DNA of 64,000 nucleotides from Squalus acanthias (GCA_030390025.1 CM059431.1:126110001-126174000), one strand, 5' to 3'. Positions 8,873-46,777 are shown, counted from the first letter of the stretch. Translations and numbers: made by a program. Notes: generated from the letters alone by a model not told the origin.

Positions 8873-9016
8873 CCTCAACCACGCCTCCCCATTCACCAAC
8901 AGTTCTATGCTCCTTGCCTTTCATCTATCACTGGCCATCACATCACCCATCGCATACAAAATAAACTCATCGCTCTTATTACATTCCCTTAGTGCCAGTC
9001 ATCCATGTGCCTTTGC

Positions 9017-10285: not shown

Positions 10286-10719
10286 AGCACCGATTGTCTT
10301 TTGAAAAAACTCTCACCACTTCTTGCAGCCACAATGCATCTCCCCTTTAAGAGGTGCTGGCTGCCTTTAAATAATGCTAGCAACTCATGATATCAGGCCC
10401 CCTGCTGATGCTTGCAGCCAATGAACAGCACGGGGAGCACTGGCTGCATGCAGTAATCATTTAAAAGGGCAGGCAGCACCAATTTGCACCTAACATGCTG
10501 CCTGCAACACAATGAACAGGCATGGGTTAATGGCGTACTGTAATCCCCATGCCTCTTTTTGGGGGTTAGCCAATTTCTCTCCCATTCCTTGAAAAAATAG
10601 CCTAAATCAGTTGTGTTTGGTTAGCATATTCCAGTGAAAAGCAAAGCTAAGAGCACCACATCCACAACATAACCAGGCCAAAATGCTTCACAAAAGGGGC
10701 AGATTGACAATGAGCTGGA

Positions 10720-12499: not shown

Positions 12500-13467
12500 G
12501 GACCTAGAAATTTGGTAGTCCCCGAAAACGGGCACAGGGATCGCGATGTGAAAGCAACCCGCACCTGTTCGGAGGACTGCAGGCAGCACCTAAAATTCAC
12601 GCTGCCTGCTATTTTGCATTATTGTAGCATTCAGCCGAGCGCTGAGCGCCGAGCGCTGAGCACTGAACACGCTGCTGAGTGGCTTAATGCTCAGCAGGGG
12701 GCCCAAGTTCGGGTGAGGCTTGCTCCAATTAAAGCTAGCCTGCACCTCTTAAATGGAAGCTGGCTTCTGCCTGCAACAGGTGGTGGAAATGCTTGTGGAG
12801 GCTACTGGTATAAAAAGACTGAGTAATGGCTCAACAGGCATGAGAAAGGCTCCAAGGTTCTCAGATGCAGCACTGGAGGTGTTGTTCCAGGAGGTCAACT
12901 CCAGGAGAGAAGTCCTCTTCCCAACAAGGGCCAGGAGGCCCTCCAGGCAACAGACAAGACGGCAGTGGGAGCAGATAGCCAACGTGGCCAATGCCAGTAG
13001 TATAGCCGCGAGGACCTGGACTCAGTGCAGGAAGAAGTTTAATAACTACACACGCGAGGTCAAGGTCGGTGAATTCATCTTCAAATGCCATACCCCACCA
13101 TTTGCCTCACACCTGCTCAATGCACCACACCCTCAATCACTCACCTACCAACCATTTCTACCAAATACCTCACATTTGTAGCTTCAACTCACCCGCACAC
13201 ACTTATCACTGCTGCAAGACTCACATCAACATCTCACAGCTTGAACACACTGTCAGCTATTAAACCATGACAGGCACATCACCCAAACAGATTACGCCAC
13301 ACAAACTGACACACTTCTCTTTCTCTTGCAGGAAAAGGTGGCACATAAAAGACGCCAGCAGACATTAACTGGCGGGGACAGACTTGGCTGCATCACCTCA
13401 CTCCCTTGGAGGAGATGGTGTTGGCCATTCTTGGCTGAGGCATGGCTGAGCCCGTGGCAGGGCTGAA
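12500..13467 (+). mobile_element. Harbinger H2, left part: Myb/SANT gene exon 1 and start of exon 2
   Basis: ORF 12753-13181 APRFSDAALEVL...RTWTQCRKKFNN; donor AAG|GT at 13065, acceptor CAG at 13329-13331; collinear with H3. Confidence 0.88.
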
Positions 13468-15200
13468 ACATAGAAACATAGAAGATAGGAGCAGGAGCAG
13501 GCCATTCGGCCCCTCGAGCCTGCTCCACCATTCAATGATATCATGGATGATCATCCAAATTCAGTACCCTGACCCTGCTTTCTCCCCATATCCCTTGATC
13601 CCTTTAGCCTTAAGAAATATATCTAACTCCTTCTTGAATATATTTAATGAATTGGCCTCAACTGCCTTCTGTGGTAGAGAATTCCACAGGTTCACCACTC
13701 TCTGGGTGAAGAAATTCCTCCTCATCTCAGTCCTAAATGGCTTACCCCTTATCCTTAGACTGTGACCCCTGGTTCTGGACTCCCCCGCCATCGGGAACAT
13801 CCTTCCTGCATCTAGTCTGTCTAGTCCTGTTAGAATTTTATAAGTTTCAATGAGATCCCCTCTCATTCTTCTAAACTCTAGCGAATACAAGCCCAATCGT
13901 CCCAATCTCTCTTCATACGTCATTCCTGCCATCCCAGGTATCAGTCTGGTGAATCTTCGCTGCACCCCTTCCATGGCAAGAACATCCTTCCTGAGATAAG
14001 GTGAACAAAACTGCACACAATACTCAAGGTGTGGTCGCACCAAGGCCCTGTACAACTGCAGCAAGACATCCTTGTTCCTGTACTCGAATCCTCTCGCTAT
14101 GAAGGCCAACATACCATTTGCCTTCTTAACCGCCTGCTGCACCTGCATGCTTACCTTCAGTGACTGGTGCACAAGGACACCCAGGTCTCGTTGCACTTCC
14201 CCTTTTCCCAATCTATTGCCGTTCAGATAATAATCTGCCTTCCTGCTTTTGCCACCAAAGTGGATAACCTCGCATTTATTCACATTATACTGCATCTGCC
14301 ATGCATCTGCCCAATCACCCAACTTGTCCAAATCATACTGGAGTTTCTCTGCATCTTCCTTACAACACACACGCCCACCCAGCTTTGTGTTGTCTGCAAA
14401 CTTGGAGATATTACATCTAGTTCCCTTGCCTAGATCATTAATATATATTGTGAATAACTGGGGTCCTAGCACCGATCCCTGCGGTACCCCACTAGTCACT
14501 GCCTGCCACTCGGAAAAAGACCTGTTTATTCCAACTCTTTGCTTCCTGTCTGCCAACCAGTTCTCTATCCAAGTCAGTACCTTAAACCCAATCCCATGTG
14601 CTTTAACTTTGCATGCCAATCTCTTATGCGGGACCTTATCGAAAGCCTTCTTAAAGTCCAAATACACCACATCCACTGGTTCTCCCTTATCTATTCTACA
14701 AGTTACATCCTCAAAAATTCCAGTAGATTAGTCAAGCATGATTTACCTTTTGTAAATCCATTTTGACTTTGTCCGATCCTGTCACTGTTTTCCAAGTGCT
14801 CTGCTATTACATCTTTTATAATGGACTCTAGCATTTTCCCCACTACCGATGTCAGGCTTACCGATCAATAATTCCCCATTTTCTCTCTACCACCTTTTTT
14901 AAATAGTGGGGTTACATTAGCTACCCTCCAATCCATGGGAATTGTTCCAGAGTCTATAGAATTTGGGAAGATGACCAGCAATGCATCTACTATTTCTAGG
15001 GCCACTTCCTTAAGTACCCTAGGATGTAGATTATCAGGCCCTGGGGATTTATCGGCCTTCAACCCCGTCAATTTCCCCAACACCATTTCCCTACAAATAC
15101 TGATTTCATTCAGTTCCTCCCTCTCATTAGACCCTATGTTCCCCGACATCTCTGGGAGGTTATTTGTGTCCTCCTTTGTGAAGACAGAACCAAAGTATGT
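13465..15200 (-). mobile_element. CR1 LINE A, 3' part (RT domain, 3' UTR, octamer tail)
   Basis: ORF 13561-14676 with [27 protein letters not shown]; (TTCTATGT)n tail at 13465-13483. Confidence 0.95.
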
Positions 15201-18200
15201 CAAGGATGTCTCAGAGCGGCTGCAGAACATTCTGGAAAGGGAGGGTGAAGAGCCAGCTGTCGTGGTGCATGTAGGTACCAACGATATAGGTAAAAAGCAG
15301 GAAGAGGTCCTACAAGCAGAATTTAGGGAGCTAGGAGCTAAATTGAAAAGTAGGACCTCAAAGGTAGTAATCTCTGGGTTGCTAACAGTGCCACGTGCTA
15401 ATCAGAGTAGCATGAACAGGATAGCGAGATTAAATACGTGGCTTGAGCAGTGGTGCAGGAGGGACGGATTCAAATACCTGAGGCATTGGAACCAGTTCTG
15501 GGGGAAGTGGGACCTGTACAAAAGGGACGGTCTGTACTTGGGCAGGACTGGAACCGATGTCCTCGGGGTAATATTTGCTAAGGCAGTTCGGGAGGATTTA
15601 AACTAATATGGCAGGGGAATGGGAACCTATGTAGCGAAACAGGGGGAAGTAATATGCAGTCAGAAACAAATGTTAGAAGGGTGAGAAACAATAAGGGAAA
15701 TCCGAGTAAACAAAGGCAAGAAACACAAAGGGCCATACTAAATCATAAGTCTAAAAGGACAAAGGGTGTTAATAAAACAAGCCTAAAGGCTCTGTGTCTT
15801 AATGCAAGGAGTATCCGTAATAAGGTGGATGAATTGACTGTGCAAATTGATGTTAATGGATATGATGTGATTGGGATTACAGAGACGTGGCTCCAGAACA
15901 ATCAAGGCTGGGAACTGAATATCCAGGGGTATTCAACATTCAGGAAGGATAGAATAAAAGGAAAAGGTGGTGGGGTAGCATTGCTGGTTAAAAAGGAGAT
16001 TAATGCAGTAGCTAGGAAGGACATGAGCTTGGAGGATGTGGAATCAATATGGGTTGAGCTGCAGAACACCAAAGGGCAGAAAACATTAGTGGGGGTTGTG
16101 TACAGACCTCCAAACAGTAGTAGTGAGGTGGGGGAGGGTATGAAACAGGAAATCAGAGGTGCATGCAAAAAGGGCGCAGCAGTTATCATGGGTGACTTTG
16201 ATATGCATATAGATTGGGCTACTCAAACTGGAAGCAATACGGTGGAGGAGGATTTCCTGGAGTGTTCAAGGGATGGTTTCCTAAACCAATATGTTGAGGA
16301 ACCAACTAGAGGGGAGGCCATCCTGGACTGGGTGTTGTGTAATGAGGAAGGACTAATCAGCAATCTTGTGGTGCGAGGCCCCTTGGGGAAGAGTGACCAT
16401 AGTATGGTGGAGTTCTACATTAGGATGGAGAAGGAAACAGTTAATTCAGAGACCATGGTCCAGAACTTAAATAAGGGCAACTTTGAGGGTATGCGGCGTG
16501 AATTGGCGAGGTTAGATTGGCAAGCGATATTTAAGGGGTTATCAGTGGAAGGGCAATGGCGGACATTTAGAGATCGCATGGATGAACTACAGCAATTGGA
16601 CATCCCTGTCTGGCGTAAAAATAAAAAAGGGAAGGTGGCTCAACCATGGCTAACAAGGGAAATCAGGGATAGTATTAAAAGCAAGGAAGTGGCATACAAA
16701 TTGGCCAGAAGTAGCAGCAAACCCAGGGACTGGGAGAACTTTAAAACTCAGCAGAGGAGGACGAAGGGTTTGATTAGGGCAGGGAAAATAAAATATGAAA
16801 GGAAGCTTGCAGAGAACATTAAAACGGACTGCAAAAGCTTCTATAAATATGTAAAAAGAAAGAGGTTAGTAAAAACAAACATAGGTTCCCTGCAGTCAGA
16901 AACAGGGGAAGTCATAATGGGGAACAAAGAAATGGCAGATCAATTGAACAAGTACTTTGGTTCGGTGTTTACTGTGGAGGACACAAACAACCTTCCGGAA
17001 ATAAAAGAGATTAAAGGATCTGGTAAGAGGGAGGAGCTGAGGGAAATCCTGATCAGTCGGGAAAAGGTATTGGGGAAATTGATGGGACTGAAGGCTGATA
17101 AATCCCCAGGGCCTGATGGTCTGCATCCCAGAGTACTTAAGGAGGTGGCCTTGGAAATAGTGGATGCATTGACGATCATTTTCCAACATTCCTTAGACTC
17201 TGGATCAGTTCCGAAGGAGTGGAGGGTGGCTAATGTTACCCCTCTTTTTAAAAAAGGAGGGAGGGAGAAAGCAGGGAATTATAGACCGGTCAGCCTGACA
17301 TCGGTGGTAGGTAAAATGATGGAATCAATTATTAAAGATGTCATAACAGACCATTTGGAAAGTGGCGACATGATAGATTCAAGTCAGCATGGATTTGTGA
17401 AAGGGAAATCATGCTTGACAAATCTTCTGGAATTTTTTGAGGATGTTTCTAATAGGGTGGACGGGGAGGAACCAGTAGATGTGGTGTATTTGGACTTTCA
17501 GAAGGCCTTCGACAAGGTCCCACACAAGAGATTGGTGTGCAAAGTTAAAGCACATGGGATTGGGGGTAATGTGTTGACGTGGATTGAGAACTGGTTGGCA
17601 CACAGGAAACAAAGAGTAGGAGTAAATGGGTACTTTTCAGAATGGCAGGCAGTGACCAGCGGGGTACCGCAGGGTTCGGTGCTGGGGCCCCAGCTGTTTA
17701 CATTATATATTAATGATTTGGACGAAGGGATTAATTGTAATATCTCCAAATTTGCGGATGACACTAAATTGGGAGGCAGTGTGAACAATGAGGAGGATGC
17801 TAGGAGGCTACAGAGTGACTTGGACAGGTTGGGTGAATGGGCAAATGTATGGCAGATGAAGTACAATGTGGATAAATGTGAGGTTATCCACTTTGGTGGT
17901 AAAAATAGGGAGGCAGACTATTACCTGAATGGTGGCAGATTAGGGAAAGGGGAGGTGCAACGAGACCTGGGCGTCATGGTACATCAGTCACTGAAGGTGG
18001 GAAGGCAAGTGCAGCAGGCAGTCAAGAAAGCAAATGGCATGATGGCCTTCATAGCAAGGGGATTTGAGTACAGGAGTAGGGAGGTGATGCTACAGTTGTA
18101 CAGGGCCTTGGTGAGGCCACACCTGGAGTATTGTGTGCAGTTTTGGTCTCCTAACTTGAGGAAGGACATTCTTGCTATTGAGGGAGTGCAACGAAGGTTC

Positions 18201-18691
18201 ACTAGATTGATTCCTGGGATGGCCAGACTGACATATCAAGAAAGACTGGATCAACTGAACTTGTATCCTCTGGAGTTCAGAAGAATGAGGGGGGATCTTA
18301 TAGAGACGTTTAAAATCCTGACTGGTTTAGACAAATTAGATGCGGGCAGAATGTTTCCAATGTTAGGGAAAACTAAAACCAGGGGTCACAGTCTAAGGAT
18401 AAAGGGGAAGCCATTTAAGACTGAGATGAGGAGGAACTTCTTCACCCAGAGAGTGGTGAATCTGTGGAATTCTCTACCACAGAAGGATGTTGAGGCCAGT
18501 TCGCTAAATATATTCAAAAGGGAGTTAGATATAATACTCACAACGAGGGGGATCAAGGGGTATGGTGAGAAAGCAGGAATGGGGTACTGAGGTAGCATGT
18601 TCAGCCATGAATGCATTAAATGGCAGTGCAGGCTCGAAGGACCGAATGGTCTACTCCTGCACCTATTTTCTATGTTTCTATGTTTCTATGT
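15201..18691 (+). mobile_element. CR1 LINE B, 5'-truncated within ORF1, inserted antisense into CR1 A
   Basis: 9-bp TSD AAAGTATGT (15192-15200, 18692-18700); ORF1 esterase remnant 15201-15606; (TTCTATGT)n tail. Confidence 0.96.
15654..18590 (+). CDS. CR1 ORF2 protein, AP-endonuclease + reverse transcriptase, 978 aa, uninterrupted
   Basis: [72 protein letters not shown]. Confidence 0.95.
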   Translation: MQSETNVRRVRNNKGNPSKQRQETQRAILNHKSKRTKGVNKTSLKALCLNARSIRNKVDELTVQIDVNGYDVIGITETWLQNNQGWELNIQGYSTFRKDRIKGKGGGVALLVKKEINAVARKDMSLEDVESIWVELQNTKGQKTLVGVVYRPPNSSSEVGEGMKQEIRGACKKGAAVIMGDFDMHIDWATQTGSNTVEEDFLECSRDGFLNQYVEEPTRGEAILDWVLCNEEGLISNLVVRGPLGKSDHSMVEFYIRMEKETVNSETMVQNLNKGNFEGMRRELARLDWQAIFKGLSVEGQWRTFRDRMDELQQLDIPVWRKNKKGKVAQPWLTREIRDSIKSKEVAYKLARSSSKPRDWENFKTQQRRTKGLIRAGKIKYERKLAENIKTDCKSFYKYVKRKRLVKTNIGSLQSETGEVIMGNKEMADQLNKYFGSVFTVEDTNNLPEIKEIKGSGKREELREILISREKVLGKLMGLKADKSPGPDGLHPRVLKEVALEIVDALTIIFQHSLDSGSVPKEWRVANVTPLFKKGGREKAGNYRPVSLTSVVGKMMESIIKDVITDHLESGDMIDSSQHGFVKGKSCLTNLLEFFEDVSNRVDGEEPVDVVYLDFQKAFDKVPHKRLVCKVKAHGIGGNVLTWIENWLAHRKQRVGVNGYFSEWQAVTSGVPQGSVLGPQLFTLYINDLDEGINCNISKFADDTKLGGSVNNEEDARRLQSDLDRLGEWANVWQMKYNVDKCEVIHFGGKNREADYYLNGGRLGKGEVQRDLGVMVHQSLKVGRQVQQAVKKANGMMAFIARGFEYRSREVMLQLYRALVRPHLEYCVQFWSPNLRKDILAIEGVQRRFTRLIPGMARLTYQERLDQLNLYPLEFRRMRGDLIETFKILTGLDKLDAGRMFPMLGKTKTRGHSLRIKGKPFKTEMRRNFFTQRVVNLWNSLPQKDVEASSLNIFKRELDIILTTRGIKGYGEKAGMGY

Positions 18692-21433
18692 AAAGTATGT
18701 ATTTAATTGGTCTGCCATTTCTTTGTTCCCCATTATAAATTCCCCTGATTCTGACTGCAAGGGACCTACACTTGACTTCACCAATCTTTTTCTCTTCACA
18801 TATCTGTAGAAGCTTTTATAGTCAGTTTTAATGTTCCATGCAACCTTACTCTCATACTCTACTTCCCCCCTCTTATTTAACCCCTTTGTCCTCCTTTGCT
18901 GAATCCTAAACTGCTCCCAATCCTCAGGTTTGCTGCTTTTTCTGGCCAATTTATATGTCCTCTCCTTGGATCTTATGCTATCCCTAATTTCCCTTGTTAG
19001 CCACAGTTGAGTCACCTTTTTTGTTTTATTTTTATGCCAAACAGGGATGAAAAAATTCTGTAGTTCATCTATGCGATCTTTAAATGCTTGCCATTGCCTA
19101 TCAACCGTCAACTCTTTAAGTAACGTTCCCCAATCCATCCTTGCCAATTCGCGCCTCATACCATCGTAGTTTCCTTTATTTAAATTCAGGACCCTAGTCT
19201 CTGAGTCAACTACTTCACTCTCCATCTTAATGAAGAATTCCATCATATTATGATCGCTCCTCCCCAAGGGGCCTCGCACAACAAGATTGCTAATTAATCC
19301 TTTCTCATTATATAATTCCCAGTCTAAGATGGCCTGATCTCCAGTTGGTTCCTCGACATATTGGTTCAGGAAACCATCCCGTATACACTCTAGGAATTCC
19401 TCCTCCACAGTATTGTTACTAATTTGGTTAGCCCAATCTATATGTAGATTAAAGTCACCCATGATAACTGCTGTGCCCTTATTGCACGCATCTCTAATTT
19501 CCCGTTTAATGCCATCCCCAACCTCAGCATTACTGTTTGGGGGTCTGTATACAACTCCCACTAACATTTTCTGCACCTTGGTATTTCTCAGCTCTACCCA
19601 TACAGATTGCACATCATCAGAGCTAATATCCTTCCTTACTATTGTGTTAATCTCCTCTTTAACCAGCAATGCTACCCCACCTCCTTTTCCTTTTTGCCTG
19701 TCCCTCCTGAATATTGAATACCCCTGGATGTTGAATTCCCAGCCTTAGTCACCTTGGAGCCACATCTGCGTAATCCCAATTATATCATATCCATTTACAT
19801 CTATTTGCGCAGCCAATTCATCCACCTTATTATGAATGCTCCTCGCATTAAGACACAAAGACTTCGGGCTTGTTTTTTTAAAAAACACTTTTTGACCTTT
19901 GTTATTTACTGTGGCCATGTTTGATTTACACCTTTGATTTCTCTGACTGCCATTTTTGCTTTTCTCCTTCCTGTCTTTTGCTTCTATCCTTGCTTCCCTT
20001 TCCTCTGTCTCCCTGCACAGGGTCGCAACCCCCTGCCATTTTAGTTTAAACCCTCCCCAACAGCATTAGCAAACACTCTCCCTGGGACATCAGTCCCGGT
20101 CCTGCCCAGGTGCAAACCGTCCAGTTTGTACTGGTCCCACCTCCCCCAGAACCGGTTCCAATGTCCCAGGAATTTGAATCCCTCCCCCTTGCACCATTCC
20201 TCTAGCCATGTATTCATCTGAAATATCCTCCTATTTCTACTCTGACTAGCACGTGACACCGGTAGCAGTCCTGAGATTACTACCTTTGAGGTCCTATTTT
20301 TTAATTTACCTCCCAACTCCCTATATTCAGCTTTTAGGACCTCATCCCGGTTTTTACCTATATCGTTGGTACCTATATGCACCACGACAACTGGCTGTTT
20401 ACCCTCCCTCTCCAGAATGCCCTGCAGTCGCTCCGAGACATCCTTGACCCTTGCACCAGGGAGGCAACATACCATCCTGGAGTCTCGTTTGTGGCTGCAG
20501 AAACGCCTATCTATTCCCCTTACAATAGAATCCCCTATTACTATAGCTCTCCTGCTCTTTTTCCTCCCGTCCTGTGCAGCAGAACCACCCATGGTGCCAG
20601 GAAGTTGGCTGCTGCTGCCTTCCCCCGATAAGCCATCTCCCTCAACAATATCCAAAGTGGTATATCTGTTTGAGAGGGGGATGGCCACAGGGGACCCCTA
20701 AACTACCTGCCTGCGCCTACTACTCTTCCTGGCGGTCACCCATTCCCTTCCTGCCTGTGCAGCCTTTACCTGCGGTGTGACCAACTGATTAAACGTGCTT
20801 TCCACGACGTCCTCAGCATCGCGAATGCTCCAGTATGTATCCATTCGCAGCTCCAGCGCCACAATGCGGTCTGCCAGTAGCTGCAGCTGGATACACTTCC
20901 CACACACATGGTCGTCAGGGACACAGGAAGTGTCCCTGATTTCCCACATAGTGGAGGAGGAGCATAGCACGGGGCCAAGCTGTGCTGCCATGACTTACAC
21001 TTTAATTAATTTAAATTAAATTAAATCAAAGCCACTAATTGCACTACAATTAAATGATATACTCAAGGGCCCTTGTTTACTAGTACTCCCCGCTACACAA
21101 CAGAGACCTTAGAAACTATAACCACAAAAATTAGGACCTTCTAAACTTTATAAACTATTAACCTTAACTGTCAAACTATAGAGTAGTATAAATACTCACC
21201 TGGCCATACTCCCCCAATCAGCTGCTTCCTCTTGCCCGTATCACTTTTTGAATCGTGGCGTGGCTCTGGAACGCCGCCGCCGGTTTGCGAGATTGACCAG
21301 CCTTTGAAAAAAAGCCCGCGAAAGTAAGTTTAAATACTCAGGGTGAAAAGTTAGGAAAAACAAAGGGGACGCAAGGGAGCTCCTCCTTCCACTCCTCACC
21401 CAACTAGCAGCACTCTGTTGAAAGCACACTCAG
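18692..21433 (-). mobile_element. CR1 LINE A, 5' part (5' UTR, ORF1, APE half of ORF2)
   Basis: APE ORF 18686-19669 (VYRPP, GDFN, SDH); joins 15200 exactly once CR1 B is removed. Confidence 0.95.
20041..20991 (-). pseudogene. CR1 A ORF1: zinc-finger/leucine zipper plus SGNH esterase-like domain
   Basis: Degenerate Cys motif with CGKC, heptad leucines, IGDSIVRG, CLPGA, HIGTND, DGLHL; one in-frame stop near 20698. Confidence 0.9.
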
Positions 21434-21457
21434 TGCAAAATCGCACTTCAAAGCCTG

Positions 21458-21464
21458 TTTTATA
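21458..21464 (-). promoter_or_regulatory. Candidate TATA box (TATAAAA) 30 nt upstream of the CR1 A leader
   Basis: Minus strand CCTATAAAACAGG; first T at 21464, pyrimidine-A start (GCACTG) at 21434. Confidence 0.55.
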
Positions 21465-21631
21465 GGCCCTGAAACAAAGGAGACTTGCTGAGCCCAGCTA
21501 CAGGAAAACCAGCTTAATCTAGTTTCCCTAATTAACTGCCTTCAGCTGCTCTGAATTGTAGGCCTTGGAACTCTTTTAAGCAAACATAAAACTACTATAA
21601 ATCAATAAAACTTTAAATAAAACTTAACAGC

Positions 21632-24600
21632 TTAAATTAAAATTATATTAACCAGGGAGACGATGCACTCCAGTCCCCAAGGCGCCCACCGGTCTCGGAA
21701 GGCTTCAAGTATGCCGGCGGACACCGCGTGCTCCATCTCCAGGGCCTCCCGGGCGCAAACATAGCCGCGGAAGAGAGGCAGGCAATCTGGCCGAACGACC
21801 CCCTCGACCGCCCGCTGCCTGGACCTGTTAATGGCCACTTTGGCCAGGCCCAGTCCTACGAGGAGGTCCTCTGACCAGCCCGCTCCCCTCCGCACCGGGT
21901 GACCGTAGATCAGGAGCATGTGACTGAAGTGCAACCAAATAGCGAGGAGCAGCCCCTTCAAATATTGAAAGAGGGGCTGCAACCTCTCACACTCTACATA
22001 CACGTGGAACACTGACTCCTCGAGGCCGCAAAAAAGACAGGCGGCCTGGGAGTCCGTAAACCTACTTAAGAGCTGATTGCATGGGACTGGTCCGTGCAAC
22101 ACCCTCCAGGCCAAGTCCCCAATAGAAAAGGGGAGGACTCCCGTGTAGAGAGCCCTCCATCGGGGACCTTTGCCTCTGCCGGACGGCAAGATGGCACGCC
22201 AAGGCGTGTCCGGGCGGCAGACGAAGATGGCAAAGTGGAGAGTGTGCAGGAGCAGCCCGTACAGGAAACCCCTCCGTGCAGAACTAAAAGGCACGGAGGG
22301 CATTTCCCTAAGACGGCTCAAGTTGTGAGGCACCGGTTCCCGAGAGGGGTTTCGGGGCCGCGCGCCGATGAGGAATTCCGTCTGAACGGGGGTCAGTTCG
22401 GATGGGATCGCCCCGCATGCTTGAGCCTCCTCGATACACCTAGTGGAGTCGGGGCCCAGTGCCACTTTCAGCGACCCGATGGCTTTGGCCGTGCACCAGA
22501 CGTCGACCCAGGAGAGGCGCCGCGCCAACTCCTCCGGCGCCATCCAGCCCGCTCCTCCGCCATCGAGCAGGTCCCCGACTCTAGTCACCTTGCCAGGCAC
22601 AGCCCTGCCCTCCGCAAGTCACCCGATCCGTCTGACGTGGAGGTGCAGATTCCTGAGCAGCGGCTCCCGAAGGAGAGCCGTTACTCCTGACAGGGGAGAA
22701 CTCCGCCTGGAGGCGACTTGGTTCCAGACCCATAGCAGTTCCTGGTAGAAGACAGGCAGCTCCCACAGGTAGGCACGCGTACAGCCTAATTCCACAAATA
22801 GGAGCTGCGTGTCGTAGTTGAGGGCGTGCATCTGACGGAAGAAATACGTCGCCAGCGCACACCATCTGGGAGGATTCTCGACGTAAAGGTATCTCTGCAG
22901 CGTCTGAAGACTGAAAGTCGCCGCCTGGGTGCAAAGGCACACCAGCGCCTGACCGCCCTCCCTAAGTGGGAGACACAGAACCGTGGCTTGGACCCAGTGC
23001 TTCCTTTTGTCCCAGAAGCAGTCGACGAACTTCCTCTGCATCTTGGCGACAAACGCAGGGGGAGGGATCAAAGTGACCAACCGGTACCACAACATGGCGG
23101 CCACCAGCTGGTTTATGACCAGCGCTCAACCCCTGTAGGACAACACTTGGAGCAACCCCGTCCAGCGTCCTAGGCGAGCGGTGACTTTGGCCTCCAGCTC
23201 TTGCCAGTTCGCTGGCCAGGCGTCCTCAACAGGGCCGAGGTAGACTCCCAGGTAGAGGAGGTGCGTGGTGCTCCAGGCGAAAGGCCTGAACTCCTCCGGC
23301 AGGGAGTCCATCCGGCACGGGCCCACCAGGAGTCCAGAACATTTCTCCCAGTTGATCTTGGCGGAGGATGTGTCCGAGTAAATCTGCTGGCATTCTCGCA
23401 TCACCCGCAAGTCGACGGGATCCGTGACCATGAGGAGCACGTCATCGGCGTAAGCTGAGAGGACGACCTCCACGCCCGGCCCTTGCAGAGCCAGTCCCGT
23501 CAACCTCTTCCGGAAGAGGCGCAGGAAAGGCTCCACGCAAACAGCATATAACTGACCGGACATGGGGCATCCCTGACGTACCCCCCTCCCGAAGCGAAGG
23601 GTCGCCGTCAAAGACCCGTTAGCTTTAATCAGACACTCTGCGGCAGCGTACAGAAGTTGGATCCGGGCGACGAAATGCGTCCCGAACCCGAATGTGCGCA
23701 GAGTTCCGAAAAGATACTCGTGATCCACCCTGTCGAACGCCTTCTCCTGATCCAGGGAAAGGAAGGCGACCGACAGACCAGCCCTCTGGGAAAAGTGGAT
23801 CAGGTCCCGGACCAGATGGATGTTGTCGTGGATAGACCAGCCCGGGACCGTTGTGGAAGTGCAGTTTTTGTCTCGGACAAAATGGTGTCCTTGAATTTAA
23901 ACTAATAAAATGGCCGACTCTGACTTGTGTGGAAAAGGGAAAAAATCCATTGTTATGTTCTTTTCTGAAAATAACTTTAAATTCTTAGACTATGCTGTCA
24001 GCAAAAGACTGCCTGCACAAAAGAAAACAGGCTTAATATTGAGATAACCAAGGGCTAGTAAAGTAAACAAACCAGTCGCCTTGGCCTTGGTAAGAGAAGT
24101 AAAATAGATAGACTCCATTTTATAGAGATTAGCTAGTCTCATTGTAAGGCATTTCTAATGTGTTTTTTCTAATTGTTAACTTAGCTTACCTTAAACAACA
24201 TGTCATGTGATATTATACTGTATAAGAATACTCCATTTTCTGTGATTCGGAAGTCTGTCATCATAGCTAATTGGGCTATGGTTGCAGTCTCCTTGCAAGT
24301 AAAATATAATAAAAAGCCTTCTTTGACGATATTGTTTACAAGAGTCTTTAATCAGAAGTCAAACTTCGACACCGTGTAGGATGAGTTGGGGTGGATCATG
24401 TGGGCCAGCACAGTGCCAAGGTGGGCAGACATGGCCCTGGGAAAAATTTTATAGTCCGTGCTGAGGACGGAGACCGGGCGCCAGTTTTTTTAAAAGGCGG
24501 AGATCACCCCTCTTGCGCAGCAGGATGATGACTGCCCTGCACCAAGAGAGGGGCATCTCCCCGGTCGCCAGACTTTCCCCCAGGACCCGCGCGTAGTCGT

Positions 24601-26028
24601 CCCCAAGACGTCCCAGAACGCCCTGTGGAACTCCACGGTCAGCCCGTCCAGCCCCGGGGACTTTCCCCTCGTAGCTGGCCGAGGGCGCCGGTCAGCTCCG
24701 CCAAGCTTAGCGGAGCATCCAATTTTTCGGCGCCCTCCGGGCCGACCTTCACCATATCCTCCCACAAAACTCTGCGCGCATCCTCGCTGGACGGATCCGG
24801 AGAGAACAGAGCGCCGTAATAGGCCCGGGTCTCCGCGCTGATCCCCTCCGGATCTGAGACCAGAGATCCGTCATCGGCCAGCAGCCCCAGGAGCTGCTTA
24901 CGGACCCCTCGTCTTTTTTCCAGCGAGTAGAAGAAGGGGGAGCCGCTGTCCAGGTCCCGCAGGAACTGGATCCGCGACCTCACGTACGCGCCTCGGGACC
25001 CGACCAGCTGCAGGTCCTTCAGCGCGCCCTTCTTCTCTTCGTACACCTTCCGCAGGGCCGGGTCCTCGACTCTTGACCGAGACGGGACTCCAGGTCGAGC
25101 ACCTCCCTCTCCAACCGCCCGACCCTGGCCTCCCACCTCTTGGTCGACCCCTTCGCGTACTCCTGACAGAAGACGCGGACGTGAGCCTTGCCCACGTCCC
25201 ACCATAGCCTCAAGGAGGGGAAGCCCCCCTGCTTCCTTCTCCAGTCGGCCCAGAACCGGCGAAACGAATCCCGGAACCGCACGTCCTCCAGCAGCAGGTT
25301 GTTAAAATACCAGTACGCAGACCCACCTGGCGCCCGCAACGGAGCGAGCTCCGCCCACACCAGGTGGTGGTCTGTGCACGGCTCCGGCCGCATGGAAGCC
25401 GCCAGAACGCAGGAGACGTACGCCCAGGAAATATAAACGCGGTCGATTCTGGACCTTCCTCCTCCAGACCCCACCCAAGTGAAGGCGCTGGAGTCGGGAT
25501 GGAGATTTCGCCAGACGTCCACCAAGTCGAAGGACCCGACCAGGTCCCTCAACTTCACCGTCGCTGCCAGGCTTCACGGGGGACCCGAACGGGTACAATT
25601 GAAATCCCCCCCGAGGATGACGCACTCGCCCACGTCGATGGAGCCCAGAAGAGCGGACACTTCTCCGAAGAAGCGCACTTGCTGCGCACCGGCCTGGGGG
25701 CATACACATTCACTAAATGGAGCGGCACGCCCCCCAGGCGAACAGTGACCTGGAGCAAAAGGCCCGGCACGTGCTCCTTGAGCCCAAAGATCGCCGGTTG
25801 AAAATGCGGGGCCAGCAAGATAGCCACCCCGCCGGAAATGTTGGAGAGGTGACTCATGCTGACCCCTCCTCGCCACTCCAGGAGCCACGTGGCCTCGTCT
25901 CCCGGAACGGTGTGAGTTTCTTGCAGGAAGCACACCGCATACTTCCCGTCCCGAAGGGGCGAGAAGTTATTGAATCTACGGCGTGCCTCTCTGCCGTTGA
26001 TGTTGAGGCTGGCTATGGTTATCTTCAT
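21632..26028 (-). pseudogene. Tx1 ORF2 (APE, RT, C-terminal zinc finger)
   Basis: MKITIASLNING, FLQETH, LGGDFN, TDH, KSPGLDGL, GVRQGCPMS, SAYADDV, CLFCGLEESVFHVYVEC; frameshifted. Confidence 0.92.
23852..24371 (+). mobile_element. Solo LTR, 520 bp
   Basis: TGTGGAAGT...ACTTCGACA termini (8/9 inverted match); 4-bp TSD CCGT (23848-23851, 24372-24375); TATAA near 24222, AATAAA at 24308; AT-rich island inside the Tx1 RT region. Confidence 0.88.
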
Positions 26029-26059
26029 GACAAGAGCATAGTGCTACCTTGACCTAACC

Positions 26060-28132
26060 CTAACGGGAGGAGGGAGCGCGGTTGCTAGTCGACCGCCACT
26101 CCCCTCTCAACCCAGCGGGGAACTTCCGGATCCGACGTCGCTCGGCCGGGCCCACGCCCCCGTCTGCGCCTATGGTTTTGACAGCGGCGCGGACGGAGCA
26201 AACGTGCAGCGCCAGATCCGACCATTTATCAATGGCCAGCCGGATTATATCCTGGCGACCCTGGCCCATGGCCACAAAGTCCCGGAGTTCCACAACGGGG
26301 ATGAGGGGGGACTCGGAGGGGGGCACGAGGGTATCCGCCGCCTCGCTGGCGACGGAGTCCATGTCATCCTCAGTGTCCTCCGCCGGGTCCCCGTCCTCCT
26401 CCGAGGGGGTCGCCATCAGCTGGCTCTACCTCTGCCCCGATCCCACCCCCAGGATCGGCGGCAGAGGAGTCATCCCTGGGCTCCTCCAGAGGCGCCAGGT
26501 CAGGAAGCGGCGGCAGCTCGGGGCCCCCCTCTGCCCCCGGCACTTGGGAACCGGGGAGTACATTAATCCCAGTTCCCCCAACACCCCCGGCGCCAGCGTC
26601 GGAGACGGAGTCAGCGGGCCTTCCCCTTCACCGCGACCAGCCTCCGACCCAGTGGACCGGGGACCCTGGTTGTATTCCTCAACCAGGTCGAGCAGCACCT
26701 GGGAGTAGTCCTGACCGTTTTGGGCGAGCTTGGCCTCATCGTCCTCGCCCACCCCGGTCCCCAGATCGCCCGACCTGGCGAGGAATAACGGTTCTTGAAA
26801 CAATTCTTCTTCCGCGGGTAGTTCCGCGCCCCCCCCCCCACGAGCAGGGTCTCTTCCCCTTCCCCGGGAGGCACAGGCTGGACAGACTCATCTGTCGTAC
26901 CCTCCCGAGGGACAGGCAACTCCTGCCGAATGACGGTGACAGTGGGGGGGGGGGGGGTTGGCGCAGCACCCGTGGTGAGCGACGACTCCCCTTGCGAGGA
27001 GGGACCCCGTTCCTTGCGGTCCTGCTCCTCTTCCAGGGCGTCGCGCCTCCTTTTCAGTGTGGAGGGATACGGAGGTTGGGAGACCTCCATGTTTACTGAG
27101 GCCTCCTCCTCCGCTCCCTCCTGTGGAATGGGTTTCCTGGGTCCCTCGGGCCCGGACCCGGCCGCAGGTCTCGATTTTCCCGCCTCGGCGGTTGCGGTCA
27201 CTGGCCCGGGCACAAGGCCCCTCGCACTCTCAAACTCCGCCACCACCTTCGCAAGGTACGGGGGCGTAAGTTTGGGTAAATCATCCCGCTCACCGAGGGG
27301 ACCTGCCTGAAGGTGTTTACATTTCCGCCACGCCTTCCTTCCGCTCGGACGCTCCCCCTCCCCCCCACTGGAGGCCGCGACGGCGTCGACCTCCGGCGTC
27401 GACCGCGCATCGGGTGTCGCAGACGCGCGGACAGAAACAGGGGGAGGAGCGGCGGCGGTGCCAGCCTTGGCCGCCTCAGATGCTTTGGCGGCCTTGGAGG
27501 CGGGGCAGTTCTTTCTTATGTGCCCCACCTCCTTACAGGCATGGCACCGCACACCGTCCGACGTCCAGAAGACGCGGTAGGCGGTCACCTCGTGGTGGAC
27601 GACGAAATCGCCCTCGGTGTCCTCCTCCCGCACCAGCTGGATAAACAGCTGGCGCCGGAAGGAGAAGACGTGCCGGAGGCTGGCCTCCTTGCCGCCGAGC
27701 GGGATTGGAGTGATTCCCGACCTCACCTCCCCCAGTTGACGTAGGTGGGGACGAAACATAGGGCGGGACGTTTGATATTACAATCCTCTGCGCGGTGGCC
27801 TCAAGCGGATCCATCGGCAGGAAGGTCCCGCCCACGGTGAGCCCCTTTTCGATGGCCAGGGACACCACCCGCTCCGACCCCAGGAAGAATACAGCCTTGC
27901 CATACATTTTAGAGGCTGCTACGATGGCTGAGGGGCCGACAACCCCAGCCATGGCTTTGACGCAAGCCCCTATCGTCAGGTTGGGGTGAGTGTAGCTCTT
28001 CACCCCCAGCTTTTTAGTAAGTAATCTGAAAGGTGACGGGGCAGCAGAAGCAGCGGGATTAGCTGTGGCCGTGGCTGCCACACCCGCGTACAACCTCGCT
28101 GGCCTCGCCGCCAGCGATGATGAGCTCGCCAT
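26060..28132 (-). pseudogene. Tx1 ORF1 (RRM-like region, CCHC zinc knuckle, low-complexity tail)
   Basis: IVAASKMYGKAVFFL, RIVISNVPPY, CHACKEVGHIRKNC; frameshifted. Confidence 0.88.
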
Positions 28133-29117
28133 AATGGGGTGTTCTTACTAAAGGGCTACACTCACCCCAAGTCACAGGCCGGGTGATGTTGGAGATAGGT
28201 CTTGGTAGTTGTTTTTTTTTGTCTTTTCCCTGAGCAGAGGGGGTTGTTTAAAGGTGATGGCACACCTCTCCCCTTATTGATTTGGAATTAGGAGAGGGGC
28301 CTTCTCCCCTATGCTCAATTGGGTAATTAATGTAAAAGGTTGGAGGGGCCTCGTTAGAGAAAGAGAGAGGCAGAGAGAGACAATGAGAGAGAGAGAGGGG
28401 GGGTGGTAAGGAGGAAGGCCGCAGGGGCTGGTTCGCCACTTAGGATGGTGGGCAGGTGGGTGCTTGCAGGGGGGGCACTCTCCGATGTTAACTATAGTCT
28501 TTGTGATGTTGTTCTTCTTCTGGTGGGGGGAGAAGATGTCTTCACCGGGGAAAAAACAGCTGGAGATGCCCAGGCTCAGTCCACCACCAGGTCTTAACGA
28601 TGTTGTAGATGGGTAATTAGTTGATGACTTCACCTGGGCAGCTCCAGCTGTCCCAGGTCAAACAATAGGCAAGGGGTGCTTGTTAATGGTGTGTGTGGCC
28701 TAGTTGTTAGCAAGAGCCACACACACCCCTTGCTGTTCCGGTCTTCTCCTTCTTCTTCCCTCCCCCCACCTAAAATACAAAGTCTTTTGGAGAGTGCCCT
28801 TTTAACACCCACCTGTAGATGTTTTTCTCAATGGCTCGCTCTCCCTCCTTCCAAGAAGATGTTGGTCTTGTTTCTCTTCTCCCCTCTCTCGTAATGGAGA
28901 CCAGTTGGGGAGGCAGTGATGGAATGGCTTCCTTCTTGTTTTTTCCCTGGTCTCCTCTCCTCTCTCTCTTCTGGCACCTCAGCAGCAGTAGTAGTAGTAG
29001 TAGTAGCTGCAGCAACAACAGGCGTGGTGGAGGTGGAAAGGGTCTCCACTCGGCCCTTCATGGCTCGGTCTCCTTCTCTTTCACCCAACTCGCAGCACTC
29101 TGTTGAAACTGCACTCA

Positions 29118-30995
29118 GAAGGAATACAAGATGCCGGTATCCTCATACGTTATCCTCCTTCTCACATCCCACTTCCCCCTCATCCCACAATCTCTTCTGA
29201 TTTACAATCTCCCCATGGTGTAAGCATGGAATTCTTCCTTTACCCACACCCCCTAACCTCCCCTCACCACAGCCCTACCCTTGTGCCTTTGTCATTTCAG
29301 ACACCCAAGAAATCCAGCCTGTCTAGCCAGTGGTTGAACAACAAGAGGGAAAGGAGAGGGAAGAAAAAGAAGAAACACCATCACACAATTTCACACTCCC
29401 AGCCACCAGCGCAGATACTGACACTCTGCATAATTTAGAGGACGCGTTAAACGCAGGAGCTGCACACGGTGAGACACCAGGCATGAGTGGCCTGCAGGCA
29501 GCGCAGATGGAAAAGGTAGCTCAGGTGCCAGCTTCCTGGAGGGCGAGGTCTCACACGAGTTCTGCTGCACAGGACTCAGATGAGGACATTGATGGGGCGG
29601 CTTACAGAAGAAGGCTGATGGGTATGCACAATGAAATGCTTGGTGCATTGGAAGGCCTGCCAGAAAGCCTGAATGCAATGTCAAGGAGCGTGGAGGAGTC
29701 CAGCTCCAGCCTTGCATGGGGATTTGGGCAGAGTTTGGAGCCCATCCTTTCCAGCTTCGAAGGGATGGGCAGATCCATTAACGCACTTGTGGACGCAACC
29801 ATCATGCCTCGTCTGATGGCCGAAGTCTCAGCTTTCATTGCAGCACAAGCACAAGCCACCCAATGTCTGAATGCTGCAATGGAAGCTCAGACGAAAGTCA
29901 TGCAAGCACAGACTGCTGCCATCGTGGCTGGGTTTACCAGTGTTGAAAGGGGCTTGCAGTGTGTCACAGCAGTCCAGCAGTCTGCACTCTGTCAGATTGC
30001 TGGGATTGCTGAGGCACTGCCCAGGGGGAGTGGCAATGGATCTGACCCTGCTGTCCTCTCTCAAGATGCTAGCATTCATCCTCCCACCACTGCCACTCCA
30101 CCAGTGCCCTTGTTGTTGCCAGTCTGTCAGCTAGCCCAGACTACTGTCACCCATGCTGAGGTGGTGCAGTCCAAAGCTGGGCCTATTAGGCCCTGAGCTC
30201 CTCGAGGTTGTCCTGGAAGGCCATCTGCAGTCTCCCCCACTGAAAGTCATCAGCCTTCCACCAGCCTTTGCCACTGGGGTAGACAAAGGCACACGCAAGA
30301 CAGTCACTAAGGGAATGCACAAGGGTGATTAGTTGAATTTTTGATGTAATTTTGGTATGGATATATGGATAAAGATTGATTGGAAAGTTTTCTTTGTGGT
30401 GGCTTTTATTTCAGCATTGTGGCCAAGAGGACGCTGTGATGGTCAGTAACAGAAGAAAGGTAAAGTGTGGGACTAATGTTGAATAAAGAATTGGGGTTGC
30501 GTTCACTGGTACTGCAGGCGGATGATTCGATTCTGGATATCCCAGCCAGAAATGGGCTGTCTTGGTTACCTCCTTCTTTCCGGTTCCTTCTCTTACGCCG
30601 CCTCCTCTTCCCCCTCTTTCTTTTCCTGCTCCTGAGCTGGTGGCCGTATCCCTGGTGGCAAGGGCTCTGCCCTCATGATGATCAGGTTGTGGAGGATACA
30701 GCAGATCACGATAAATCGGGACATGGTGTGTACTGTAGGGCTTTTCCAGAGCGGTCCAGGCAGTGGAAGCGTTGTTTAAGGATGCCAACGGTCTGCTCTA
30801 TGATATTTTGTGTGACAGCTTGGCTCTTTTTGTACGCATGCTTCCCATGTGTGGTTGGATTGCAAAGCGATTTCATGAGCCAGGTTGTCAAGGGATAGTC
30901 CTTGTTGCCCAGTAGCCAGCCTCTGGTTTGTCTTGGTGGCTCAAAGACTGAGGGAATAGCGGACTGGCGCAAAATAAAAGCATCATGACTGCTGT
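29118..30995. mobile_element. Harbinger H2, right part: rest of the Myb gene (+; last exon open at 29330-30196) and transposase 3' half (-; ~30505-30995); right end lost
   Basis: Resumes with GAAGGAATACAAGATGCC, matching H3 38479-38497; transposase motifs GWLLGNKDYP, IIEQTVGILKQRF. Confidence 0.9.
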
Positions 30996-31496
30996 GTCAA
31001 AATCTGCAAAATGAACCCTTTTTATTGTATGTATCTAATCACATCACTGCAATCATCAACAATATATAATTTAGGTCTATTACAATCTAAAGTAGAAAGG
31101 AAAACCTTTTTTGAAACACACTGTTATATTTTTAATATGAATTGTACAACCTTTATCCCCAGTGGAAATACAAGTAGCGTAAATCAATAATTGTTTCATA
31201 TTTTGCCGACTCGGAAATTTTATAATACAAAATCTTTGTCAATGTGAAAGGATCCTCTGTGCAAACTGTTTTGTGTGAAAATTGATGGTTATGGCAAATA
31301 ATTTGCTTATTTATGAAATGGCACAATCCAAATAAGGAATAAAAGGGAACCAGCTAGTGCAGATAATTCAGACTCTCTTCAATGTGCAGTGTCAGTTTGC
31401 ACTGACAATTTTGGGGCTTGTGTGCAATGTTCTTATTTAAATATGAATGGAAAATTGTAATTGTTAATACATTGCAATAATAAAATAATAAATTTG

Positions 31497-33243: not shown

Positions 33244-33853
33244 TTATTTTGTGATGGAATCATGTTACATATTGCATGAATAAATACTTTTGGGGTGAAA
33301 TTGGACTAGGCCCGAAAACAGGCACGGGGAGTTGCGTGCTGCCTGCTATTTTGCATGATAGCAGCGCACAGCCCAGCGCTGAATGCTCTGCTGACTGGCT
33401 GTGAGCTCAGCAGGGGGCCGAATTTGTGATGTTCGCGCGAGGCTAGTTTTACTTAAAGCTAGCCTGCGCCTCTTAAAGTCAGACTGCACCTCTTAAAGGT
33501 GAGCTGCCTTCTGGTGATCAAAATTTTTAAAACTGCTTCAGCACAAACCAAGAGCGCTCAACAGGCTAGGCAAAGGGCAACCAGGGTCTCGGAGACAGTA
33601 CTCGAGGCCTTTGTGCAGGGGGTGAACACTTGAAGAGAGGTCATTTACTCACAGGGGACCAGGAGGCCCTCCAGAAACATTGTAAGAAGGATGTGGGAAC
33701 CAGATCCCTGAGGTGGTCACTGCCAGCAGTGTTGCCCCAAGGACGTGGCTCCAGTGCCCAAAGAAGCTTAATGACCTCAGACAAGTCCAAGGTCAGTGAA
33801 TGCATCTTCAAAAGCCGTCTCCGACCAACTGCACGACTAGCCTCACACAATGC

Positions 33854-36800
33854 AGATCGGAACAGAGTGTTAAGCTGTGAGTTTGGTGAGTGAGTGAGTG
33901 AGTGAGGGGAGGGAGGTAGGTGTTCCTTTCTTTTTCCATCTTTGTCAGCTTCCAGGAGAGCAGGAGCTAAAAAGCTGCACAAGAGGGGACAGAGAACCAG
34001 CGGTGAGTATTTCTACAGTATTTCTACATTCCAGTCATTAAAGTAAAAGTAAGGTCTCCAGTTTAGAGTAAGTAGTGTTTAAAGGGAAGTAAGGTCCCTA
34101 GTGTATTTAGTATTCTTTAAGTTAAAGGGTGTAAATTAAGGGTAGGACATGGCAGGGCAGCTCAGCAGTGTGGAGTGCTCCTCCTGCGCTATGTTGGAAG
34201 TCAGGGACACTTCAGGTGTCAAGGGCAAACACATGTGCAGGAAGTGTCTCCAGCTGCAGCTACTCGAAATCCGCTTTTCGGAGCTGGAGCTGCGGCTGGA
34301 GTCACTTTGGAGCATCCGCAAAGCTGAGATCTTCATGGATAGCACGTTTAACAAGGTGGTCACACCGCAGATAAAGAGTGCACAGGCAGACAGGGAATGG
34401 GTGACCACCAGACAGAGTAAAAGAACTAGAAAGGTAGTGCAGAAGTCCCCTGGGTCCATCTCCCTCTCCGCCAGATTTGGATACTGATGGGGGAGATGGT
34501 TTCTCAGGGGAATGCAGCAAGAGCCAAGTCCGTGGCACTACGAGTGGCTCAGCTGCACAGGAGGGGAGGAAAAAGAGTGGGAGAGCAATAATGATAGGGG
34601 ATTCTATCGTAAGGGGAACAGATAGACGTTTCTGTGGCCGCAGACGTGACTCCAGGATGGTATGTTGCCTCCCTGGTGCCAGGGTCAAGGATGTCACTGA
34701 ACGGCTGCAGGGCATTCTGAAGGGGGAGGGCAAACAGTCAGAGGTCGTGGTTCACATTGGTACCAACGACATGGGTAGAAAGAGGGATGAGGTCCTGCAA
34801 CAAGAATTTAGGGAGCTAGGTAGCAGATTAAAAAGCAGGACCTCAAAGGTTGTAATCTCTGGATTACTCCCGGTGCCACGTGCTAGTGAGTATAGGAATA
34901 GGAGGATAGAGCAGATGAATCTGTGGCTAAAGAGTTGGTGCAGGAGGGAGGGCTTTAGTTTCCTGCATCACTGGGTCTGCTTCTGGGGAAGGTGGGACCT
35001 GTACAAGTCGGACGGGTTGCACCTGAACCGGAACGGGACCAACATCCTTGCGGGGAGGTTTGCTAGTGCTGTTGCGGGGGGGTAAACTAACTTAGCAGGG
35101 GGATGGGATATGGAGTGGAGCTAAAGTAGGGGGTGATGCACAGCCAAATATAGAGGAAAAAACAAGTCAGCCTGGAAGGCAGAGCAAATATGTAACGGCA
35201 CAAGGGAGTATGGCAAGACTGGATGGCATTTATTTTAATGCAAGGAGTCTTGCGAGTAAGGCAGATGAATTGAAGGTGTTGATGAACACATGGGAGTATG
35301 ATATTGTTGCTATCACGGAGACATGGTTGAGGGAGGGGCAGGACTGGCAGCTCAATATTCCGGGGTATAAAATCTTCAGGCGAGACAGAGGGGGGTGTAA
35401 AAGAGGAGGGGGTTTCGCAATATTAATCAAGGAGTCAATTACTGTTGTAAGGAGGGATGATATCTTAGCAGTTTCCTCTAATGAGGCCCTATGGGTAGAA
35501 CTTAAAAACAAAAAGGGGGCAAGCACTTTGCTGGGAGTGTATTATAGGCCCCCAAACAGTCAGGGGGAGATAGAGGAACAGATATGCAGGCAAATCTCAG
35601 AGAAGTGTAGAAATAATAGGGTAATAATAGTAGCGGATTTCAACTTCCCCAATATTAACTGGGATAGTCAGAGTGTGAAAGGCTTAGAGGGTGCGGAATT
35701 CTTAAAGTGCATCCAGGAGAGCTTTTTGAGCCAGCATGTAGAAAGTCCTACAAGAGAGGGGCCGTACTGGACCTAATTCTAGGGAATGTAGCCGGGCAAG
35801 TGGTAGAAGTGTTAGTAGGAGAGCATTTTGGTGACAGTGACCATAATTCGGTGAGATTTAAGGTAGTCATGGAAAAGGACAAAGATGGACCGGAAATAAA
35901 GGTTCTAAATTGGGGGAAGGCCGATTTTAATATGATAAGGCAGGATCTGGCCAAAGTGGACTGGGATCAGCTACTTGCAGGAAAATCCACATCAGAGCAG
36001 TGGGAGTCTTTCAGAAAGGAAATAAAGATAGTACAACGGCAACATGTTCCCGTAAAGGTCAAGGGTGGGACCAACAAGCCCAGGGAACCCTGGATGTCAA
36101 GGGATATACTAGAATGGATTAGGATAAAAAGGGAGGCTTTTGGCAGATACAAAGGACTAAAAACAGTGGAAGCCCGAGAGGAGTATAGAAAGTGCAGGGG
36201 GGTACTTAAAAAAGAAATTAGGAGAGCGAAGAGGGGGCATGAAATAACACTGGCGGGCAAAATAAAGGAAAATCCCAAGGTGTTTTAGAAGTATATTAAG
36301 GGCAAGAGGATAACCAGGGAAAGAGTAGGGCCCATTCGGCACCAAAGTGGCAATCTGTGTGCAGAGCCAGAAGATGCAGGTGGGGTTTTAAATGAATATT
36401 TTGCATCTGTGTTCACGATGGAGAAGGATGATGTAGGCATAGAAATCAGGCAGGGGGATTGTGATATACTTGAACAAATTAGTATTGAGGGAGAGGAGGT
36501 ACTAGTGGCTTTAGCGGGCTTAAAAGTGGATAAAACCCCAGGCCCAGATGAGATGTATCCCAGGCTGCTGTGTGAGGCAAGGGAGGAGATTGCACGGGCT
36601 CTGACACAAATTTTCAGAACCTCTCTGGCCACAGGGGAGGTGCCAGAGGACTGGAACAGCTAAAATGGTACCATTATTCAAGAAGGGTAGTAGGGATAAA
36701 TCAGGGAATTACAGGCCAGTGAGCATAACGTCAGTGGTAGGGAAATTATTGGAAAAAATTCTGAGGGACAGAATTAGTCTCCACTTGGAGAGGCAAGGAT

Positions 36801-39926: not shown

Positions 39927-39970
39927 GTCTCCTCCTCCTCCTCCTCCTCTTCCATTCTTCCTCTTCTGCT

Positions 39971-40001
<31 letters not shown>

Positions 40002-46692: not shown

Positions 46693-46777
46693 AATTGTGC
46701 TTCCCTGGGTCAGGCGGTTGCAAATCAGCAGTCTAAAGTCAAGTCCTGGGCCCCCATTACAATCAATGGAGATACTA

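Follow-up and report, generated by a model that had tools for sequence, protein, structure and literature searches.

The promoters of LINEs are generally portrayed as internal and lacking a TATA box, since whatever precedes the start site does not survive copying. In the mouse L1Md elements (A, G and T types) the point at which the 5'-most monomer is truncated is taken as the start site of the parent, the promoters are maintained by monomer duplication, and the starts of the G and T types are linked to YY1 sites, the word 'TATA' being absent from the accessible text of the paper (PMC6454616). Within the CR1 group, arrays of one to five subunits of 100-500 bp are described near the 5' UTR of some ORF1-less elements in the available text of section 15 of PMC13343379, the main text of which contains none of the words 'TATA', 'monomer' or 'promoter'. 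In chicken, turtle and pufferfish the CR1 5' UTRs carry E boxes as well as repeats of 32 bp, and the word 'TATA' does not occur in the accessible part of that source (PMC2734521). With HeT-A/TAHRE and Penelope, a tandem arrangement puts a promoter upstream of the start and creates an LTR-like promoter-to-promoter unit, the Penelope promoter being described as TATA-less in the text available (PMC5537684, PMC2377424). Finally, Tx1-clade elements often insert into other transposons, for instance Tx1L into Tx1D, Tx1-Mar into Mariner-N4_AMi, Tx1-9_AMi into Harbinger, and Tx1-8_Crp and Tx1-4_AMi into LTR elements, and a family is considered target-specific when more than 20% of its copies are flanked by the same target (PMC4494074, accessible text). 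In a search of open papers, as opposed to subscription papers and Repbase reports, no title or abstract opening described TATA monomers in CR1 or a CR1-targeting Tx1.

What, then, is to be made of a CR1 leader that is preceded by a TATA box and, beyond this, by a Tx1 element? The locus in question lies in a stretch of 64,000 nt from the dogfish Squalus acanthias (GCA_030390025.1 CM059431.1:126110001-126174000), the whole of which is here called the window. The part of interest is the minus-strand segment from 21631 to 21396, referred to as the TATA segment, and the features around it are collected in Table 1.

A nest of elements in a Harbinger transposon

The sequence from 29118 to 13465 occupies one site, with the leader at its 5' end and the CR1 tail at its 3' end. 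It is a single insertion because its flanks are the halves of one Harbinger transposon and are contiguous in a second copy (38115-39973): the transposase-side flank is 80% identical to the uninterrupted copy at 38480-39973, and the Myb side (13114-13458) matches 38115-38466. Harbinger homology stops at 29118, and 88 contigs of read run X2 leave the window at 29124 into empty-site Harbinger sequence. In this one copy the 5' end of the insertion falls at the equivalent of TATA+31, one base past the predicted +1. The window contains at least four complete or partial Harbinger copies that resemble one another at 67-80% (8381-10479; 12521-13464 with 29119-30996; 33311-33853; 38115-39973), and two of these have received CR1 insertions, at 13465/29118 and at about 33850.

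The downstream element is a vertebrate CR1, with an esterase ORF1, an ORF2 containing APE and RT, and an octamer-repeat tail; its Pfam matches are Lipase_GDSL_2, Exo_endo_phos and RVT_1. At the start of ORF1 it differs from the dogfish consensus SquAca_CR1-11 at about 10 of 251 positions, which by eye is an identity of some 96%. Its ORF2 is interrupted by a nested CR1 on the opposite strand (about 15199-18690, plus strand), which is 5'-truncated, holds an open frame of 1,002 codons (15582-18590), is around 80% identical to its host and is the source of the window's long inverted repeats.

The upstream element is assigned to the Tx1 clade by its gag-like ORF1 and by an APE-RT-zinc ORF2 that is closest to Tx1L. 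A 5' UTR is followed by ORF1, from 28132, and by ORF2, which runs from 26028 to a stop that ends at 21632 on the minus strand. RVT_1 is matched in Pfam, with zf-CCHC and zf-RVT both just below cut-off, and the RT is 59% identical to the Xenopus TX1 149 kDa protein over 100% of the query, with 38% identity at the C-terminus. Neither Tx1 ORF2 nor CR1 ORF1 led to a related locus when protein-led searches were made of viral, prokaryote and metagenome collections. The 524-bp insertion within ORF2 holds a TATAAAA of its own at 24124. An annotated white shark MATE transporter model (P0002) ends in about 60 residues of the Tx1 ORF2 C-terminus, which probably represents an annotation artefact or an exonized LINE end.

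Elsewhere in the window there are pieces, 83-91% alike, of another RT-encoding LINE family (275-2733, 3462-4519, 5910-6575 and 43626-46697), and a duplicated region of about 2.4 kb (55718-58090 and 60079-62458, at a spacing of 4.36 kb) that is 70-80% alike and contains ORFs, of which the one scanned (56233-56961) has no Pfam match. A hairpin at 52421-52615, with 97-nt arms that are 96% complementary and 1 nt apart, is possibly a MITE or fold-back element, and related pieces lie at 63892-64000.

Table 1. Features of the locus, in window coordinates
Feature	Position	Strand	Basis or remark
Leader copy 1, at the 5' terminus of the entire insertion; taken to open CR1 monomer 1	29081..29118	-	begins at TATA+31 equivalent
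Tx1-clade LINE, full-length, decayed (frameshifts, stops), read as inserted in monomer 1	21632..29080	-	domain matches and similarity
Later insertion, 524 bp, AT-rich, interrupting Tx1 ORF2	23847..24370	.	skipped by contigs of X2 (2) and X16 (1)
AT-rich block	21573..21631	-	20% GC; homologous to post-leader block of catshark ScyCan_CR1-11b
Putative upstream promoter block of the monomer, conserved, 46 nt	21504..21549	-	
TATA box TATAAAA at -30	21458..21464	-	motif search of window
Initiator-like TGCACT	21432..21437	-	predicted +1 A at 21434
Leader copy 2, opening the CR1 5' UTR proper	21396..21433	-	
Rest of CR1: 5' UTR, esterase ORF1 from 20991, ORF2, (CTATGTTT)n-type tail ending 13465	13465..21395	-	
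Harbinger DNA transposon, transposase side, outer flank	29119..30996	-	DDE_Tnp_4, E 1e-8
Same Harbinger, Myb side, other outer flank	12753..13464	+	Myb_DNA-bind_5, E 1e-12
Second CR1 5' end, starting inside homologous leader	33850..33900	+	no Tx1 and no TATA upstream; matches SquAca_CR1-14 start

The leader, the TATA box and their relatives

The two copies of the leader (21433-21396 and 29118-29081) are identical at 34 of 38 positions (89%, E 1e-8 within the window). That the leader forms a CR1 5' end is seen in the second CR1 of the window, which begins inside a homologous leader, in the dogfish consensus SquAca_CR1-14, which starts with the same leader motif, and in contig joints. In these joints leader-1-type sequence is joined straight to the CR1 UTR at 21399-21405 (10 X2 and 12 X5 contigs, each side no more than 20-29 letters long, in a list of 15 out of 448 joints). 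On the ownership of the TATA box the second CR1 is silent, because it is truncated below that point. The leader pattern had 0 matches in metagenome and viral contigs. Short back-jumps in X5 and X16 contigs at 21296-21341 correspond to further short tandem units in the CR1 5' UTR of relatives.

The preliminary description had placed a TATAAAA 30 nt before the A that precedes the downstream leader, and this is so, the box starting at 21464 and the A lying at 21434. It had also taken the leader at 29118 to be the promoter-less 5' end of an RNA copy, which agrees with the Harbinger DNA, devoid of a TATA, that lies upstream of it. The resemblance to a Pol II promoter with TATA and initiator, in which the start site would define the leader, likewise holds as a prediction, as do promoter activity and the start at 21434. 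Both strands of the 64,000-nt window together contain 17 copies of TATAAAA, and TATAWAW sites number 49, with a probability of 0.0023 per given 6-nt slot. The initiator consensus is BBCABW, and when this is used to score the 49 sites only the one at 21464 has an initiator at +29 to +31; the pair is therefore unlikely to have arisen by chance. The TATA segment is a repeat, since contigs of X2, X5 and X16 cover it, and an extra T (plus strand) in the A run of the TATA box, at 21457, is carried by 13, 17 and 1 of their contigs, respectively. A scan against Rfam returned one match, at chance level (E 0.23), so that no snRNA or tRNA target is involved. A sigma-70 promoter scan, which has no bearing on Pol II, came up empty. 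When the open frame of 45 codons that spans the segment was used as a query, one search gave two weak protein matches, at 33-40% identity, and another gave none.

To which element, then, does the segment belong? The consensi compared with it, each over its first 400 nt, come from PMC13343379 (Supplementary Table 2) and include 108 cartilaginous-fish CR1 rows, many of them 5'-truncated. Homology to the monomer is found in 1 of these 108 rows over those 400 nt, one motif set of the table search having been chosen after that row was known. The row is the catshark consensus ScyCan_CR1-11b, in which a leader, an AT block, a conserved block, TATAAATA (the TATA) and again the leader follow one another with a period of about 289 nt, in a layout colinear with 21631-21396. 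It is Tx1-free, because its total of 4,190 nt cannot hold a 7.4-kb Tx1. By eye, the two share six colinear exact words of at least 7 letters, 54 nt in total; the maximum in 1,246 window chunks was 47, and 54 or more was reached in 1 of 3,000 shuffles, which over 108 rows amounts to about 0.04 (108 x 1/3,000) for this test alone. The AT block shares an exact 13-mer and an 8-mer at a spacing of 29 versus 28 nt (by eye), a combination that none of 430 AT-rich window chunks and only 2 of 20,000 simulations reproduced. Within the block at 21549-21504, 34 of 46 positions are identical by hand alignment, for a score of 41, whereas the best of 632 window chunks scored 31. The spacing from TATA to leader is 38 nt in the catshark consensus versus 30 here.

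That the segment might turn up in the CR1 5' UTR of Tx1-free copies was the outcome that the preliminary description had named as counting against it. This is what the related catshark consensus displays, the segment lying there between two leaders. For the exact dogfish subfamily, the consensi listed include no Tx1-free copy, and no dogfish consensus examined reaches that far 5', SquAca_CR1-11 starting about 300 nt downstream of leader 2. Related layouts, all judged by eye and without a control, are seen further afield: the stingray consensus HypSab_CR1-12 has two tandem units, its start recurring 27-29 nt after a TATA, and the tortoise consensus GopEvg_CR1-4 is arranged as leader, unit, TATA and leader, the two sitting in sequence unrelated to the dogfish segment. 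PriPec_CR1-4, LeuEri_CR1-1 and the gecko L2 consensi HemCap_L2-1a and HemCap_L2-3 have a similar look, and ScyCan_CR1-2 and ScyCan_CR1-12 have a TATA ahead of the leader. Short 5' tandem repeats occur in many ORF1-bearing shark CR1 consensi (CarCar-2, -4, -5, -7a and -23; ScyCan-6, -7a, -7b and -19; SquAca-7, -9 and -15b), whereas the available text of PMC13343379 ties 5' subunits to ORF1-less elements only.

The 3' junction of Tx1 lies somewhere in 21632-21572, and it is only bracketed because other Tx1 copies in X16 run on into letters that resemble the AT block. Three X16 contigs of such copies pass 21655 into letters matching the first word of the AT block at 12 of 13 positions, so Tx1 ends are possibly tied to this block across the family; the continuation could mean either that Tx1 has repeatedly inserted here or that the block is part of the Tx1 end. 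In the window Tx1 flanks the CR1 monomer at one site, the three contigs hinting at the same 3' neighbour. The surroundings of the junctions have no clear target-site duplication, the longest words in common being five of 6 nt. Of these, AAAGAG at 29081 and 21576 is a possible 6-nt duplication, and 21631-21573 would on that basis be a Tx1 3' UTR; this candidate conflicts with the homology of the AT block to the catshark CR1 monomer and was downgraded. If the AT block belongs to CR1, the Tx1 3' UTR would be at most 9 nt, which is odd.

Origin of the TATA segment

With a probability of roughly 0.75, judged from sequence comparison, the TATA segment is part of a CR1 5' UTR monomer that has been split by Tx1, and Tx1 is not the supplier of the promoter. 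It is most likely CR1's own because ScyCan_CR1-11b is homologous to it with no Tx1 present and because the same layout is found in stingray and tortoise CR1. The segment would represent the 3' part of a tandem monomer of about 240 bp in a shark CR1 5' UTR, ordered as leader, AT block, conserved block and TATA, with the TATA that closes one monomer setting the start of transcription at base one of the leader that follows. Transcription of a parent carrying at least two monomers would begin from its upstream TATA and give an RNA that starts at leader 1 and keeps one complete TATA monomer inside, and this RNA would be reverse-transcribed from the CR1 tail into the Harbinger. The daughter copy would start at a promoter-less leader yet keep a promoter, because the transcript carries the downstream TATA. 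Tx1 would have entered monomer 1 just after the leader, pushing its halves 7.4 kb apart; we infer this order of the CR1 and Tx1 insertions. The sequence of leader, body, promoter and leader was read correctly at the outset and would owe its look to a Tx1 sitting inside monomer 1, but the idea that the upstream Tx1 drives CR1 is not supported, since Tx1 appears to split the CR1 monomer. Each round would cost one monomer, and duplication may replenish the supply, by analogy to mouse L1.

The likeness to mouse L1Md, where the LINE 5' UTR has tandem repeats of about 200 bp, the first cut at the start and the series kept up by duplication (PMC6454616, PMC9022269, accessible text), extends to the leader, duplicated here around a unit of about 240 bp when Tx1 is set aside (about 289 nt in the catshark), and to an insertion that begins, in one copy and relative to a predicted start, at TATA+31. 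The mouse elements differ in belonging to the L1 clade rather than to CR1, and their activity has been measured, whereas in the shark CR1 it is predicted from sequence and the start from the TATA at -30 with its initiator. Unlike the ORF1-less elements in which 5' arrays are described in the available text of PMC13343379, the dogfish CR1 has an esterase ORF1. The likeness to HeT-A/TAHRE and Penelope is one of principle only: there, as far as the accessible text goes, the promoter comes from the 3' UTR of a second copy of the element itself, lying upstream, but here it is apparently in the 5' UTR repeat of the downstream CR1, a homologous segment being found in the 5' UTR of a Tx1-free CR1 of a related family, and the upstream Tx1 is of a different clade. 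The locus does resemble the transposon-targeting Tx1 families in that a Tx1-clade LINE is nested in another mobile element, although the available text of PMC4494074 describes no family that targets a CR1 promoter monomer.

How well do other readings account for the same letters? The preliminary description took the roughly 200 bp past the Tx1 stop as the Tx1 3' end, supplying a promoter in the manner of HeT-A or a Penelope pseudo-LTR; neither claim is sustained, given the homologous segment in the 5' UTR of the Tx1-free catshark CR1 and a leader that is the CR1 5' end. What is left of such a direction is a derived version, with the CR1 monomer captured by Tx1. In the general case a Tx1 family would carry the TATA segment, native or CR1-captured, as its 3' end, insert at CR1 leaders and drive the downstream element, the leader duplication being a long target-site duplication or an inherited copy of the target. 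This fits a segment that follows directly on the Tx1 stop, no further 3' UTR or poly(A) being present, the X16 Tx1 contigs that enter similar AT letters, and the 4 differences in 38 leader positions, which suit the age of the copies, and it has precedents in HeT-A and Penelope (PMC5537684, PMC2377424, text available). It is nevertheless distinctly unlikely, for besides the catshark segment between two leaders and the same layout in stingray and tortoise CR1, it requires a cut exactly at the CR1/Harbinger border, and the depth of the segment is far under that of the Tx1 3' end. Summed contig depth, which is not equal to copy number and is read across UTRs that diverge faster than ORFs, is 6,025 and 3,812 (X2) and 91,037 and 50,589 (X5) in the TATA segment, the bin at the end of Tx1 ORF2 being 10-40 times higher at 154,826 (X2) and 929,413 (X5). 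The drop hints weakly at something unlike the shared 3' UTR of 5'-truncated LINEs. Moreover, among the 15 of 448 joints listed there is no Tx1-to-Tx1 joint (29080 back to 21396); that the same list has no empty-site joint either counts against the split-monomer reading. It is very improbable that the TATA arose at random in the AT-rich end of a LINE and has no promoter role: the window does have 17 TATAAAA words, but this is the sole TATA and initiator pair among 49 sites, the insertion has its 5' end at +31, a TATA stands at the homologous place in ScyCan_CR1-11b, and many X2 and X5 contigs cover the segment.

A further possibility concerns the order of events and shares monomer ownership with the split-monomer reading, with which it is compatible. 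Tx1 may have entered a CR1 monomer elsewhere, where it would ride the CR1 promoter, so that a co-transcript of about 11.6 kb, comprising leader, Tx1, monomer and CR1, was retrotransposed into the Harbinger by the CR1 machinery. The single insertion site, with a 5' end at the predicted start and a 3' end at the CR1 tail, and the similar divergence of the two elements (CR1 about 4% from the dogfish consensus, Tx1 5-6% from an X16 contig) are in its favour. Sequential insertion yields the same final sequence without an 11.6-kb cDNA, however, and a second composite has not been seen; the Harbinger site is empty in 88 X2 contigs, and a CR1-only filled site appears in none of those listed. We regard this order as doubtful, if possible. 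A broader proposition, somewhat less probable again, is that vertebrate CR1-group LINEs widely store TATA and initiator as tandem 5' monomers, in U3-R-like fashion with no LTR, and also that a lineage of shark Tx1 elements takes as its target a point 40-60 nt past the start site in the monomer, is transcribed from the CR1's upstream TATA, uses the AT block as its 3' UTR, leaves a working CR1 TATA behind and can travel as composite RNA.

Consequences for shark CR1

The locus is a decayed nest, and it carries a caution, in that a nested insertion into a promoter monomer mimics a pseudo-LTR. If CR1 does use TATA-bearing tandem monomers, each round of copying would lose one promoter and copies left with the leader only would be silent. 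CR1 is the dominant shark repeat, CR1-group elements making up 22-34% of elasmobranch genomes (PMC13343379), and, if the reading is true, many strong core promoters would be scattered through shark genomes.
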